Source of the DNA: Spirochaetia bacterium
Lineage (GTDB): Bacteria > Spirochaetota > Spirochaetia > SZUA-6 > Bin103
Length of the DNA: 64,000 nucleotides
NCBI GenBank assembly: GCA_965208575.1
Contig: CBDBOV010000003.1
Span: forward strand, 32,001-96,000
Direction of reading: 5' to 3'
The position numbers and the translations under genes are program-made. Shown here piece after piece: positions 3,217 to 42,286 of the stretch. The notes under the pieces were generated by a model. That model did no database searches. It saw nothing but the letters and a program-made list of their open reading frames with translations, and was not told the DNA's origin. Each line of letters begins with the position of its first letter. Position 1 is the stretch's first letter.

Positions 3217-4532
3217 TTACCCTACGGGCGCTGCGCGATCGGTCGTCGAGCATCGGTGTCGTCGGGCTCGGCTACGCGGGAACGCCGTTGTTAATGGCGC
3301 TACAAGACTGTTTTTCCGTGTACGGATATGACAGTGACGAGGAGCGAATTCAGGAGTTGCGCACGGGCGCGGATCACACGGGGTCCACATCAGCAAGGGA
3401 GCTTGAAGCTTCAAGCGCATGCCTCTCATCGGACCCCACGGTCCTGAGACAGTGCGGTATGGTAATAGTCACCGTACCTACACCGCTCGCACTCGATCAC
3501 CGTACACCAGACCTTGGACCGCTAGAGAGCGCTTCTTCCGCCATAGGAAGGAATCTCAGCCTAGGAGCACTTATCGTTGTGGAGTCGACGGTCTATCCGG
3601 GTGTGACACAAGGGGTCGTCGGTCAAATCATCGCGCGTGAGAGCGGGTTGGAACCGGGTGCAGGTTTCCACCTGGGTTACTCCCCGGAGCGTATCAACCC
3701 GGGCGACAAGCTCCATACGCTGAACCAGATTACCAAGGTTGTGGCTGGTGAGGACAACGCCGTTACCGAGCTGATGAGCGCCGTCTACGGGGCCGTGAAC
3801 GGTGGTCAAGTTTACCAGGCGGCCAGTATCCGAACGGCCGAGGCCGCGAAGGTTTTTGAGAACGTGCAGCGGGACGTCAACATTGCACTCATGAATGAGT
3901 TGGCCATGATATGTCATCGACTTGGAGTCGATACGAGAGAAGTAATTCGGACCGCGGGGACGAAGTGGAACTTTGTCCCGTTTGAGCCGGGACTCGTTGG
4001 CGGTCATTGCATTGGCGTTGACTCCTACTACCTCACACATGCCGCCGAGGCGGCAGGATACTCGCCGCGCATGATTTCCACAGGCAGATCGATTAACGAC
4101 TCGGTGAGCGGCTATGTGGCGGACCGAACCGTTGCGCTGATCAGGTCCGTCCGCAGTGGCCAGGTACCGATCAGAGTACTGGTATTGGGTTTTGCATTCA
4201 AGGAGAATGTCCCGGACGTGCGCAACAGTCGGGTAGCGGACCTCGTTGTTGCGCTGCAAGAACGAAAGATCGAGTGTTCTGTATTCGATCCTGTAGTCGA
4301 CCCGGACGAAGCCCGTAGACAGTGTGGCGTTGACCTTGTCGACAGAGTCGATTTCGGAGCACCGTATGACGCGATTGTCTTGGCGGTGAAGCATGACCTC
4401 TTTCTCTCGACCTATTCCCTTTCGAGAGTACGAGAGTTGGCGGTTGCATCGGGTGCTGTTCTGGTTGACATAAAGTCCGTATATGATCGTCAGGCGGCGC
4501 AGGCCGCCGGCTTCGTCTATTGGCGCTTGTAG
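3213..4532 (+). CDS. Nucleotide-sugar 6-dehydrogenase (WbpO/TviB-like)
   Basis: VVGLGYAG, ESTVYPG, YSPERINPG, GGHCIGVD and FKENVPDVRNS motifs; GTG start overlaps the previous stop. Confidence 0.9.
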   Translation: MITLRALRDRSSSIGVVGLGYAGTPLLMALQDCFSVYGYDSDEERIQELRTGADHTGSTSARELEASSACLSSDPTVLRQCGMVIVTVPTPLALDHRTPDLGPLESASSAIGRNLSLGALIVVESTVYPGVTQGVVGQIIARESGLEPGAGFHLGYSPERINPGDKLHTLNQITKVVAGEDNAVTELMSAVYGAVNGGQVYQAASIRTAEAAKVFENVQRDVNIALMNELAMICHRLGVDTREVIRTAGTKWNFVPFEPGLVGGHCIGVDSYYLTHAAEAAGYSPRMISTGRSINDSVSGYVADRTVALIRSVRSGQVPIRVLVLGFAFKENVPDVRNSRVADLVVALQERKIECSVFDPVVDPDEARRQCGVDLVDRVDFGAPYDAIVLAVKHDLFLSTYSLSRVRELAVASGAVLVDIKSVYDRQAAQAAGFVYWRL

Positions 4533-38909: not shown

Positions 38910-39472
38910 TGGCCGGTTCCACCGAGGCGCGCATCGGCATCATCAACGTTTCCGACCGCGCCGCCGCCGGCATCTACGAGGACACGCCGGGCAAGGCGGT
39001 GGTCGCCGCGCTCGGCGAGTACCTGCTGTCTCCCTGGAGCAGCGAGTACCGCGTCATTCCCGACGAGCGCGATCAGCTCACCGCGGCCATGATCGAGATG
39101 GCCGACGACAAGGGCTGCTGCCTGGTGGTCACCACCGGCGGCACCGGCCCGGCGGTGCGCGACGTTACCCCGGAGGCCACCGAGGATGCGTGCGAGAAGA
39201 TGCTGCCCGGGTTCGGCGAGCTGATGCGCCAGGTCAGCCTGCAGTACGTACCGACCGCCATCCTGTCGCGGCAGACCGCCGGCGTGCGCGGCGCTACCCT
39301 GATCGTGAACCTGCCCGGGCGCCCGCGCGCCATCCGCCAGTGCCTGGACGCGGTGTTCCCGGCGATCCCCTACTGCGTCGACCTGGTCGGCGGTCCGCGC
39401 CTGGAGGTGAATCCCAACGTGGTCAAGGCATTCCGCCCCGGCGAGGGCAAGCCGTCCGAAGCTCGCTCCTGA
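38909..39472 (+). CDS. mog: Molybdopterin adenylyltransferase
   Basis: SDRA, TTGGTGPAVRDVTPEAT, AILSRQ and NLPG motifs. Confidence 0.93.
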   Translation: MAGSTEARIGIINVSDRAAAGIYEDTPGKAVVAALGEYLLSPWSSEYRVIPDERDQLTAAMIEMADDKGCCLVVTTGGTGPAVRDVTPEATEDACEKMLPGFGELMRQVSLQYVPTAILSRQTAGVRGATLIVNLPGRPRAIRQCLDAVFPAIPYCVDLVGGPRLEVNPNVVKAFRPGEGKPSEARS

Positions 39473-39482
39473 GAAACAACAA

Positions 39483-40871
39483 TCAGGCGGCCTCCGGGAC
39501 AAGCTCATAACCGAGTGCGTGTGCCTGCCTTCGGAGCCGGCGTTCAAAGCGGCGCCGGTCCTGGCGCTCCTCGGCGGCGAGGATGCTGTCATCGTAGGCC
39601 ACGCGATGCGTGATCAGATGGTAGATGATCCGAGCCAGTTTATGCGCGACTGCAGTGGTCGCTTCGGGAGTACCCAGACGCGCCCGCATGCGGCGGAAGT
39701 GCTGGCCCAGGGCCGATGGGCTGCGGTACAACGACTGGGTCGCCCAGTGCAGCGCCTGGGCGGCCCGATTGGTGCCCCGACCGGTGTGCGAGCTGATGAT
39801 CTTGCCGCCGGTGATCTGGTTGTGGGGGCACAGGTGCAGCCAGGAGGCGAATTGCGGTGCGGTCGGAAAGCGGGACAGTTCCGGGCCGAGTTCGGTGAAC
39901 AGAACCAGCGCCGTACTTTCGCCGATGCCGGGAATCAGCGTCAGGTCAGTGCCGAACAGGTGCGTAAGGTGGCCGCGCAGGTCGAACCGCTTGGCCGGTG
40001 ACTCGGTTGGCGCCTCGGGCTCCGCATCGATTCCCTCATCCGGTGGGTCGTCGCCCACCGCGCCGGGTGGCTCGCTGCTGGCTTCGAACGCGCGGATGCC
40101 GGCTTCGATTTCCTGATCGCACTCCGTGATGAGTTGTTGGTAGTGGGCATAGGTCGCTCGCGCGTGCCGCAACGCCAACAGGTGCTCGGCGCGCCAGTCG
40201 CCCTGCAGCGCCTTGATCAAGGTCTCGCGGCTGGCTTTGATCCGCCGGTCGGCCAGAGCGGCCAACCGCGCCGGATCCCGCTCACCCGCCAGGATAGCGT
40301 CCGTAATGGCCAGACCGGTCGTCCCCGTCAGGTCAGAGATGGCATGGTGCAGATGCACGTTCATCTGGCTGTACGCCTTCTGCATGTGCAACACGCTGCG
40401 CGACGCCATCTTGATCAAGGTGTCGCGATGGCGCAGCACCGAGCGCAGTGCACACACCTCGTCGGCAGGGCGGAATGAGCCGCGCAGCAATCCCACCGAG
40501 TGCAGGTAGCGCAACCACTCGCAGTCGGCCACGTCGGACTTCCGACCGGGTACCGAGTGCACGTGACGCGCATTCACCAGCACCACGTCGAAGCCGTGTG
40601 CCTCCAGGATCTGATACACCGGAATCCAGTACACACCGGTGGACTCCATCGCCACCGTGGTGACCTCGCATTCCTTGAGCCAGTCGGCCAAGGCGTGCAG
40701 GTCCGCGGTGAACGTAGCAAAGTTCCGGATCGGGTCCGGGTCGCGCTCCGGGCGCACAGCCGCGTACACCTCGGTAGCGCCTATGTCCAAGCCGGCAGCG
40801 TCCGGGTGCATCACCTTTGGTTGCGCTGTGCGACTGCCCTTGCCCTTGCGTCTGTGTCTGCGTCGTGCCAT
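39483..40871 (-). CDS. IS110-family transposase/recombinase
   Basis: GLDIG, MESTGVYW and KSDVAD (DEDD RuvC-like) motifs, IPGIG, C-terminal AHKLARIIY; GGAGG RBS. Confidence 0.95.
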   Translation of the reverse strand: MARRRHRRKGKGSRTAQPKVMHPDAAGLDIGATEVYAAVRPERDPDPIRNFATFTADLHALADWLKECEVTTVAMESTGVYWIPVYQILEAHGFDVVLVNARHVHSVPGRKSDVADCEWLRYLHSVGLLRGSFRPADEVCALRSVLRHRDTLIKMASRSVLHMQKAYSQMNVHLHHAISDLTGTTGLAITDAILAGERDPARLAALADRRIKASRETLIKALQGDWRAEHLLALRHARATYAHYQQLITECDQEIEAGIRAFEASSEPPGAVGDDPPDEGIDAEPEAPTESPAKRFDLRGHLTHLFGTDLTLIPGIGESTALVLFTELGPELSRFPTAPQFASWLHLCPHNQITGGKIISSHTGRGTNRAAQALHWATQSLYRSPSALGQHFRRMRARLGTPEATTAVAHKLARIIYHLITHRVAYDDSILAAEERQDRRRFERRLRRQAHALGYELVPEAA

Positions 40872-40874
40872 GAA

Positions 40875-41080
40875 ACCTCCGCTACGACTGAGTGGTGCGG
40901 CCAAGGCGTGTGTAGCAGGTATTCTCCTGAACGGGATGATCGCCACCCGGCCGCGCCGGCTGACAACCTCACCAATGACTACGCCACCCGCCCCGGGGCC
41001 AAGCTCTTGAACGGGTTCGCAGAACGTAACGCCAGTGACGCGCCGGCCTACTTTCGCGCTCCACCCAGAACTCTGCCCAC
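40875..41080 (-). ncRNA. Candidate IS110 bridge RNA
   Basis: Two related ~80-nt modules, one carrying TCAAGAGC (target match) and the next TCAGGAG (donor match); TATAGT -10 at 41081-41086. Confidence 0.65.
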
Positions 41081-41146
41081 ACTATAGCTCACCCTTGTTT
41101 CTTTCATGACTGCGCCGGCCCAGGGGCCGGTGGGATAGCTCTTGAG

Positions 41147-42286
41147 TTACTGATCCATCACCGAGCCGTCGCTGTTCAGGCGCGTCTCTACCGCTCGCGG
41201 CCGGTAGGGATGGCGCTGGCGGGCGTCCGGTGCCAACTCGATGCCGATGCCCGGACGCTCCGGCAGTAGCAAGAACCCGGCGTCCACCGCGAGAGGCCGG
41301 TCGACGATGGTGCGCTTCGGCGGCAGCTCCTCCCCGGCCGGCAGCTCCTGCAGCGCGAAGTTGGGAATGGCGGCGGCAAGCTGGACGCACGCCGCGGTGC
41401 TCACCGGGCTCAGCGGGTTGTGCGGGACCACCTGGACGTGGAACGCCTCCGCCACCGCCGCGATCTTCCTGGCGTGGGAGATGCCGCCCACCATGCACAC
41501 GTCGGGCCGCACGTACTGGACGGCGCCGCGCTGCAGGAGCGCCTGGAATTCCCAGATGCTGTGCAGCCGCTCTCCGGTGGCGATGGGAATGTGAATCCGC
41601 TCCGCCACCAGGGCCATCTCGTCGAGGTTGTCGGGGAGAATCGGATCCTCGTAGAAGAAAGGGCGATAGGGCTCGATGCCGCGGCCGAGCACCACCGCCT
41701 CGGCCGGGGTCAGGCGGCGGTGTATCTCGATGCACAGGTCCACGTCATTGCCCACCGCCTCCCGGTAGCGGCGCACCGTATCGGCGGCATCCTCCATCTT
41801 GTCGGCGTGGGTCTTGAAGTAGGGCCGGTCGCGCGCCTCGTCCAGGAACGGCGTCAGGTGGCCGACCGCCGTGAAGCCGCGCGCCTTGGCGTCGATGCAG
41901 CCCCCGATCAGCTCTTCCTTGGTACTCCCCTTGACGTGGTAGTAGGCGCGCGCCCGGTCGCGGCACTTGCCGCCGAGGAGCTGGTGTACCGGCACGCCGA
42001 AGTGCTTGCCGGCAATGTCCCACAGGGCAATGTCGACGGCGCTGAGCGCGCCCATGATGGCCGCCCCGCGGAAATGGGTCCAGCGGTACAGGTACTGCCA
42101 GTGGTGCTCGATGCGCAGCGCATCCTGGCCGACCAGGTAGCGTGCAAAGGTGTCGACGGCCGCGGCCGACGCCTCCAGGAAGCCCCACGCCCCTGATTCG
42201 CCGAGGCCGGTGATGCCGGCGTCGGTATGCACCTGCACGTACAGATAGCGATCCACCAGCAGCGTCTCGACGGCGGTGATCTTCAT
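41147..42286 (-). CDS. Enolase-superfamily dehydratase (galactonate dehydratase-like)
   Basis: SAVDIALWDIAGK, FYEDP, IATGER and VPHNPLSP motifs. Confidence 0.88.
   Translation of the reverse strand: MKITAVETLLVDRYLYVQVHTDAGITGLGESGAWGFLEASAAAVDTFARYLVGQDALRIEHHWQYLYRWTHFRGAAIMGALSAVDIALWDIAGKHFGVPVHQLLGGKCRDRARAYYHVKGSTKEELIGGCIDAKARGFTAVGHLTPFLDEARDRPYFKTHADKMEDAADTVRRYREAVGNDVDLCIEIHRRLTPAEAVVLGRGIEPYRPFFYEDPILPDNLDEMALVAERIHIPIATGERLHSIWEFQALLQRGAVQYVRPDVCMVGGISHARKIAAVAEAFHVQVVPHNPLSPVSTAACVQLAAAIPNFALQELPAGEELPPKRTIVDRPLAVDAGFLLLPERPGIGIELAPDARQRHPYRPRAVETRLNSDGSVMDQ

Follow-up and report, generated by a model that had tools for sequence, protein, structure and literature searches.

How an IS110-family insertion sequence chooses its insertion site, and how it recognises its own ends once these are joined, is the question raised by a locus in a Spirochaetia bacterium whose genome comprises 6.5 Mb with 67% G+C. 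The window, i.e. the whole stretch of DNA analysed here, covers 64,000 nucleotides (nt) of contig CBDBOV010000003.1 (GenBank assembly GCA_965208575.1, positions 32,001 to 96,000), and the element occupies window positions 39465-41146 on the minus strand; all reads and coordinates of the element given below refer to that strand. A sequence-only reading of the locus had proposed that the non-coding region upstream of the recombinase gene carries one match to the target of the element and one to its donor end, preserving the single A/G difference between the two. This was borne out by the covariation of both matches with the DNA sites of related elements and by a two-loop RNA fold with compensatory base changes, which together argue for a bridge RNA with a target loop, a donor loop and an AG core. 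We consider it likely that a bridge RNA, encoded in the 267-nt left end, enables the element to select its site and to recognise its own ends when joined.

Element boundaries and the AG core

The genome contains 15 full copies of the element, 14 at 100% identity and one at 99.94%, and the element is a recently active, recently expanded insertion sequence in this host. The extent common to all 15 copies runs from position 41146/41145 to position 39466/39465. The junctions in the window are ...GTAA-C-TCAAG-AG|CTATCCC on the left and ...TTGTTTC-TCAGG-AG|C on the right. Across the copies, the left junctions read N-TCAAGAG|CTATCCC (N being C in 12, G in two and A in one), with a tandem copy as the exception: TCAAG stands 5' of 14 of the 15 copies and TCAGG before the fifteenth, the tandem one. 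The right junctions read ...TTTCTCAGGAG|N, with N being C in 10 copies, T in three, A in one and G in one, and no sequence conservation was found among the 15 copies beyond this first right-flank base. The flanks of other genomic copies, which the sequence-only reading had named as a check, thus agree with it, as all copies share their ends and are preceded by TCAAGAG (14/15) or, for the tandem copy, by TCAGGAG. AG is present at both junctions of the 15 copies, and insertion is site-specific, without target duplication beyond the core and without terminal inverted repeats.

The core had been proposed to be GAG(C), and this had to be revised. AG is the sole sequence common to target and donor guides in all relatives (e.g. 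TAAACAG vs TTGGGAG), and the crossover must fall between the A/G difference on one side and the variable right-flank base on the other; the core is therefore AG, and the element proper spans 41138-39466, i.e. 1673 base pairs (bp) from the tip CTATCC... to ...TCAGG plus the right copy of the core. On the left, the C that follows AG already belongs to the element as its first base; on the right, it is only a mild preference of the flank, being present at +1 in 10/15 right flanks vs 137/317 free TCAAGAG sites, a value close to background. A 4-nt core (AG plus CT) was rejected because the right flanks seldom start with CT, with T at the second position in 3/15. In the window, the left target arm (41141-41146) consists of a preferred C (41146) and TCAAG (41145-41141) and is followed by the left copy of the core (41139-41140), while the right end (39466-39472), supported by junctions, copies and relatives alike, consists of TCAGG (39472-39468) and the right copy of the core (39467-39466), followed by the first right-flank base (39465), here C. 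TCAAGAG occurs 346 times in the genome, comprising the 14 occupied sites, 15 guide-coding sites inside the copies and 317 free sites, and C at -6 was enriched at the occupied sites (11/14) compared with the free ones (93/317).

The tandem junction reads ...CTCAGGAG|CTATCCC, that is right end, AG and left end, as expected for a circle junction, which would read ...TTGTTTCTCAGG-AG-CTATCCC. It lies outside the window (G000:C4:1265899-1269251, loci L013/L015), where two head-to-tail copies have CTCAGGAGC in common and display the circle-junction sequence. This arrangement is consistent either with donor-donor recombination or with insertion into a resident right end that mismatches the target guide at one base.

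Covariation of the guides and the two-loop RNA fold

The leader, a 267-nt region on the minus strand between the left-end tip and the recombinase gene, contains both matches at the places where they had been reported, TCAAGAGC at 41010-41003 and TCAGGAG at 40930-40924, each preceded by CCCGU (CCCGT in DNA). The first includes the left target guide UCAAGAG (41004-41010), which has the same sense as the left flank plus core and is identical to it; the second is the left donor guide UCAGGAG (40924-40930), which has the same sense as the right end plus core and is identical to 39472-39466. The target guide is followed by a handshake-like CU (41002-41003), the same dinucleotide with which the element begins. 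Relatives show covariation of the target guide with the left flank, and of the donor guide with the right end.

Among close relatives, i.e. multi-copy elements with 73-83% protein identity from five genomes of the same family whose boundaries were set independently by copy comparison, six guide variants change together with the left flank. UGUCAAG is paired with TGTCAAG in genome G018, exactly at 15/17 left junctions and with one mismatch at the remaining two, as well as in G008 (five copies) and in one family of G019 (two copies). The same pair was found in the genome studied here, where a truncated relative with 76% identity (G000:C4:about 146500-147225, outside the window) has the guide UGUCAAG behind TGTCAAG; its gene ends early, at about residue 149. 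Further guide/flank pairs in the close relatives are AGUCAAG/AGTCAAG, UGUGAAG/TGTGAAG and UCAGGAG/TCAGAAG, and the guide AGUAAAG pairs with AGTAAAG, TGTAAAG or TGCAAAG flanks. The donor guide follows the right end in turn, with UCAGGAG/TCAGGAG here, UUAGGAG/TTAGGAG in G006 and UAAGGAG/TAAGGAG in others.

The plan of the leader is kept in distant relatives (44-58% identity) from Acidobacteriota, cyanobacteria, Burkholderiales and other groups. The collection comprised 116 locus records, 94 of which had both guides recognisable, and these represent 61 distinct elements, among which the target 7-mer takes 45 distinct forms and the donor 7-mer 13. Covariation across homologous elements, also put forward earlier as a check, was confirmed for both guides: the target 7-mer occurred exactly in the 270-nt upstream window of its own element in 37/52 cases vs 33/2600 (1.3%) for the guides of other elements, and the donor 7-mer occurred no more than 160 nt past the stop codon of its own element in 35/50 cases vs 21/2142 (1.0%), with swap controls giving 2/52 and 1/50, respectively. 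In addition, the first two left-end bases equal the dinucleotide after the target guide in 33/37 elements (permuted mean 6.9; reached in 0/2000 permutations), which fits the handshake logic described for IS621 (PMC11208158, PMC13626964). One right end in G018 is fused exactly behind the 7-mer encoding the guide of the next copy, showing that DNA identical to the guide served as a target.

The locus of this fusion is L055 at about 3260-3420 (G018:C3), with the same junction in L031, and the next copy is without the first ~136 nt of its left end. Separately, loci L023 (G006), L085, L069, L134 and L088 have target guides, UCAGGAG and UUAGGAG, that are identical to the donor 7-mers of related elements, and the copy in G006 has a remnant resembling a right end immediately before it and a partial left end after it; elements with such target guides may often insert at the ends of their relatives.

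The structural context of the guides was obtained with RNAalifold on 61 non-redundant leaders, followed by pair counting. The fold comprises 24 pairs in four helices, in which 96.0% of cells are paired compared with 82.9% in shuffles and 30-46% with slid partners. Changes on both sides were seen in 15 pairs, with a covariation score of 0.43 vs 0.175 (0/500). The helices delimit two pseudo-symmetric internal loops, first the target loop and then the donor loop, with the guide on the 3' side of each. In the target loop, the outer stem (helix 1) is formed by GGCCG (41044-41048) and UGGCC (40997-41001), and is paired in 100% of the 61 sequences through GC, GU, AU, CG and UA pairs. The 5' side of this loop is GCGCGUCAC (41035-41043), the homologue of the putative right-target guide considered below. 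The inner stem UGG(C)GU/ACCCG (helix 2, 41029-41034 with 41012-41016), which together with its apical part covers 41012-41034, is likewise 100% paired, with CG replaced by UA in 13 sequences and GC by AU in three, and the 3' side of the loop consists of U, the guide and CU. The donor loop follows directly, with an outer stem (helix 3) of CCGGGGC (40990-40996) and GCCUUGG (40901-40907) that is 87.9% paired and has 5/5 pairs changed on both sides. Its 5' side, GGCGUAGUCAU (40975-40985), showed no complementarity of significance with the tip of the left end, with the right end or with the flanks. The inner stem of the donor loop (helix 4, 40965-40974 with 40932-40941), which carries a variable apical hairpin (40932-40974 in all), is 96.1% paired with 6/9 pairs changed on both sides.

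The sequence-only reading had described the leader as two related modules sharing GGGTGG and GCCGGCGCG. The relatedness holds at the level of the pseudo-symmetric loops; GGGTGG and GCCGGCGCG themselves are not homologous parts, as the second module of relatives lacks them and they belong to different elements of the structure. What is really repeated is CAN-UGGYG, a hairpin, and then CCCG-U-guide. As had been suggested from the sequence, the two modules may have arisen by internal duplication. In an Acidobacteria relative (L064, about 100-345), the leader has a single loop that begins as a target loop and ends as a donor loop, as would result from a deletion between the two similar modules.

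Guide order, mechanism and competing explanations

The right-hand guides had not been located in the earlier reading. Sequence comparison across the family points to a right-target guide on the 5' side of the target loop, where 90/228 Watson-Crick pairs can be formed with right-flank bases 1-6, compared with 59.3 +/- 6.6 expected (z 4.7). None of 1000 permutations reached 90/228, and other registers, used as composition-matched controls, gave 50-73. A longest-run test of the target-loop 5' side against the right flank gave a z of 4.6, with sense and cross controls not significant. Relatives vary in this respect, with CATC(G) at offsets 0-2 in 3/5 right flanks of G008 and a partial GCT match in 3-4 of seven right flanks of G095; L087 and L137 are examples of relatives in which loop and flank match.

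From these results we infer a mechanism in which the left end is transcribed, the RNA pairs with DNA and strand exchange proceeds in a mirrored frame. In the target loop (41048-40997), the 7-nt guide UCAAGAG on the 3' side would pair with the bottom strand, and the CU after it would act as a handshake-type dinucleotide that gains pairing after strand exchange. In the donor loop (40996-40901), UCAGGAG would serve at the equivalent place, being identical to the right end plus core in the predicted circle junction, and the single A/G difference would keep target and donor apart. The layout would be mirrored in that a right-target guide (complement of the top strand) lies 5' of the guide pairing with the bottom strand. 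Viewed on the opposite strand, the core would be the canonical CT and the layout that of IS621 (5' guide, stem-loop, 3' guide plus handshake). The position of the handshake, the right-flank complementarity of the 5' side and the fact that AG is CT on the other strand all fit a site that is read in opposite polarity. Insertion in this genome would have needed only 7-8 nt of left arm plus core, the right flank not being read.

Several observations weigh against this mechanism. At the 15 right flanks of the element itself, complementarity to the presumed right-target guide was at background (1.27/6 vs 1.59/6 at free sites), which suggests that the natural insertions used the left arm and core only; the family-level guide is thus unmatched at its own sites here. 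Contiguous antisense matches, register tests and inspection by eye revealed no right donor guide (complement of the left-end tip). When the 5' side of the donor loop and the 28 nt that follow the donor guide were compared with the left-end tip in both orientations (sense and antisense), the longest runs were likewise not significant. A handshake after the donor guide was also not significant when compared with right-flank bases 1-2. The 317 TCAAGAG sites that stand empty imply other constraints on site choice, which the mechanism leaves unexplained. Concerning the RNA, folding of the single leader sequence was no stabler than that of shuffles (z -0.7 and -1.2) and gave misleading structures, and a scan of Rfam 15 with E up to 1 gave no bridge-RNA match (this release may hold no such model), its sole return being a chance miRNA hit that lies outside the element. 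A consensus scan of the left end and across the tandem junction revealed no sigma-70-type promoter. Sponge metatranscriptome contigs matched parts of the coding region only, none extending over 40872-41146, and one raw-read run (four runs in all) gave 0 reads, which is no test of absence. With regard to the comparative evidence, the ends of single-copy relatives were located by the guide itself, which is corrected only through the cross-element control. Finally, the recombinase has Thr rather than Ser at the position aligned with the IS621 nucleophile: T354 (codon 39810-39812) aligns with the presumed nucleophile S241, assuming a 2-residue offset between chain and native numbering, and the equivalent residue among 91 distinct relatives is Ser in 42, Thr in 43 and not matched by motif in six.

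An improbable alternative is that the element encodes a canonical IS621-type bridge RNA and that the mirrored order reflects a wrong fold, the guides lying instead on the 5' side of loops closed by other helices. The order of a 5' left guide and a 3' right guide is indeed the one described for IS621 and ISPpu10 (PMC11208160, PMC11208158, bioRxiv 2026.03.19.712850), and the helix right after the target guide region (CCGGGGC with GCCUUGG) is real and, as long as the outer stem was not known, could be read as the "stem-loop" after a 5'-side guide. However, the outer stem GGCCG/UGGCC, paired in 61/61 sequences with GC, GU, AU, CG and UA variants, encloses the guide on the 3' side, the right-flank complement lies 5' of the target guide, and the dinucleotide after the guide acts like the handshake that follows the 3'-side guide of IS621. 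In a variant of this alternative, the donor loop would be nested in the stem after the target guide; such a nested architecture, with the donor loop within the stem of the target loop, was ruled out by the covariation of the same outer stem.

The internal 7-mers could also be copies of the end and target that are bound by the recombinase at the DNA level, like subterminal repeats, with no guide RNA involved. A covarying DNA inverted repeat does exist between the right end and an internal left-end box: the right-end subterminal repeat TTGTTTCT (39472-39479), directly upstream of the donor 7-mer, is the inverted repeat of the left-end box AGAAACAA (41095-41102), located 32-39 nt from the left-end tip. 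It measures 8 nt here, and a right-end/left-end inverted repeat of at least 7 nt was present in 18/22 elements (permuted mean 5.7, maximum 11), with variants such as GGACCA/TGGTCC, GGAACT/AGTTCC and GAAACA/TGTTTC; the repeat may fold the junction into a stem-loop or be a binding site of the recombinase. That no transcript was detected in metatranscriptome contigs or in the raw-read run also counts in favour of this explanation. Yet the first 7-mer follows a flank that lies outside the element and differs between related elements, the compensatory base-pair changes around the 7-mers are expected of RNA and not of protein-binding sites, and the protein family is known to use guide RNAs (PMC11208160, PMC11187229), so that we regard a purely DNA-level role as very improbable. 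Lastly, the idea that chance produced the matches from a repetitive, GC-rich leader and from similar end and target sequences deserves next to no credence and is refuted. Although the two matches are not independent, the modules being related and the 7-mers of donor and target differing at one base, dinucleotide shuffles of the 267-nt leader (n=20,000) contained the 8-mer in sense in 0.39% and both 7-mers together in 0.05%, and the covariation extends over 45 distinct target guides.

Known IS110 systems, minor features and gene context

The recombinase gene (39483-40871, minus strand) encodes 462 amino acids (aa) plus stop, with GGAGG at 40876-40880 before the ATG, and was assigned to the IS110 family by Pfam (DEDD_Tnp_IS110, PF01548, 71.9 bits; Transposase_20, PF02371, 44.9 bits) and by NCBIfam (NF033542 "IS110 family RNA-guided transposase", 251 bits with a cutoff of 140). 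Its likeness to the solved IS621 recombinase is remote (E 1.3e-7) and confined to the Tnp domain. Residues D29, E76, D113 and D116 were invariant across seven relatives, and the E76 motif AMESTG aligns with IEATG of IS621; judged from motif and spacing, the four residues are probably the counterparts of IS621 D11, E60, D102 and D105 (PMC11208158). Sponge and other metatranscriptome contigs match parts of the gene within window positions 39478-40693 at 95-99% likeness; they are relatives or strain variants and no evidence of transcription of this copy. Recombinases 46% identical over residues 15-457 occur on Citrobacter and Klebsiella plasmids (e.g. hits H21-H30), where they are labelled only "IS110 family transposase".

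In comparison with IS621 as described in PMC11208160, PMC11208158 and PMC13626964, the element has in common a DEDD plus Tnp recombinase, a guide RNA encoded upstream of the gene within a long left end, a pair of pseudo-symmetric internal loops with the target first and the donor second, a 2-nt core that is common to target and donor and lies within the guides with no other target duplication, and a dinucleotide beside the 3'-side guide that matches the non-cognate DNA. In IS621, it is the 3' side of the loop that pairs with the top strand, and a 2-nt handshake guide comes after it (PMC11208160, PMC11208158, PMC13626964). The differences concern the protein (462 aa vs a chain of 328 residues, with Thr at the position taken for Ser241), the core (AG in the sense of the gene, CT on the other strand), the reversed guide order, the left guide (7 nt vs 9), the right flank, which is not read at the element's own natural sites, the right-donor guide, which was not found here, and the 7-8-bp inverted repeat between right and left ends.

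With the seekRNAs of the IS1111 group (ISEc11, ISPa11 and ISKpn4), as reported in PMC11187229 and PMC13604230, the element shares the placement of the top-strand complement 5' of the bottom-strand match, and its 7-8-bp covarying inverted repeat may be a counterpart of their subterminal inverted repeats of at least 7 bp (7-17 bp being the IS1111 criterion), although the left copy lies 32-39 nt inside the end here. In contrast, the non-coding region is downstream of the gene for the transposase in IS1111 elements and upstream here, with 16 nt between the stop codon and the right core vs 267 nt upstream of the gene. Moreover, IS1111 transposases measure 330-350 aa (PMC11187229) vs 462 aa. An upstream non-coding region, RNA-guided site-specific insertion and natural re-targeting through guide changes in relatives are features shared with the ISEc21 seekRNA and the ISPpu10 bridge RNA (PMC11187229, bioRxiv 10.64898/2026.03.19.712850), whereas both of these are described there in the IS621 order, the match to the bottom strand coming first, and for ISPpu10 the core is given as CT. 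A stem-loop in the target is also used by ISPpu10 (bioRxiv 10.64898/2026.03.19.712850), while none was evident at the 14 sites here, the flanks of which are unrelated.

The element is therefore of a known kind, a bridge-RNA-type IS110 element, and represents a variant of it in guide order, in polarity and in targeting through the left arm only. In the literature searched, no bridge RNA encoded in the left end and having reversed guide order was found, although the extended-data figures or supplements of PMC11208160, or the 86 models of bioRxiv 10.64898/2026.10.21.760802, may contain one. It may be suggested, tentatively, that this element and its relatives in Acidobacteriota, cyanobacteria, Burkholderiales and other groups form a distinct architectural class of IS110-family guide RNAs. 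Such a class would be characterised by a left-end RNA of opposite polarity (the CT core reverse-complemented and the top-strand guide first, as in IS1111), a handshake behind the left target guide that is matched to the tip, a covarying inverted repeat and tip hairpin where the right donor guide would be expected, Ser/Thr interchange at the presumed nucleophile position of the recombinase, and "half-match" insertion through a left arm of 7-8 nt only. Bridge recombinases are being engineered as programmable genome-rearrangement tools, with design rules that derive almost wholly from IS621 and close relatives. A widespread reversed-order clade would show which of these rules are fixed (the pair of pseudo-symmetric loops, the 2-nt core in common, and the handshake that follows the 3'-side guide) and which is free, namely which end of the element carries the RNA relative to the polarity of the site. 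The 15 left-arm-only insertions would be a natural counterpart of the half-match insertion reported for IS621 in vitro (bioRxiv 10.64898/2026.08.31.748434), which bears on off-target risk.

Near the tip of the left end lies a hairpin, CCGGCC-CCTG-GGCCGG (41115-41130); a hairpin at about positions 7-25 of the left end, with unrelated stem sequences, was predicted in most of 41 relatives in single-sequence folds, which were not tallied. By its position, this hairpin may be analogous to the 5' stem-loop of the IS621 bridge RNA. A -10-like box, TATAGT (41086-41081), is conserved by eye in close relatives and was rejected as a promoter given the negative consensus scan; the tip hairpin lies upstream of this box, which argues for an RNA start nearer to the tip.

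As regards its surroundings, the element sits between two convergent genes. It starts 3 nt past the TAA of a gene of the enolase superfamily (MR_MLE domains), and its right end overlaps the stop codon of a gene with a MoCF_biosynth domain, a 187-aa open reading frame (ORF) ending ...SEARS*. Between the right end (CTCAGGAG) and the target (CTCAAGAG) there is a single, synonymous base difference, so that this ORF and its stop codon are identical with or without the element. The borders with the two genes correspond to window positions 39465-39472 and 41139-41149.

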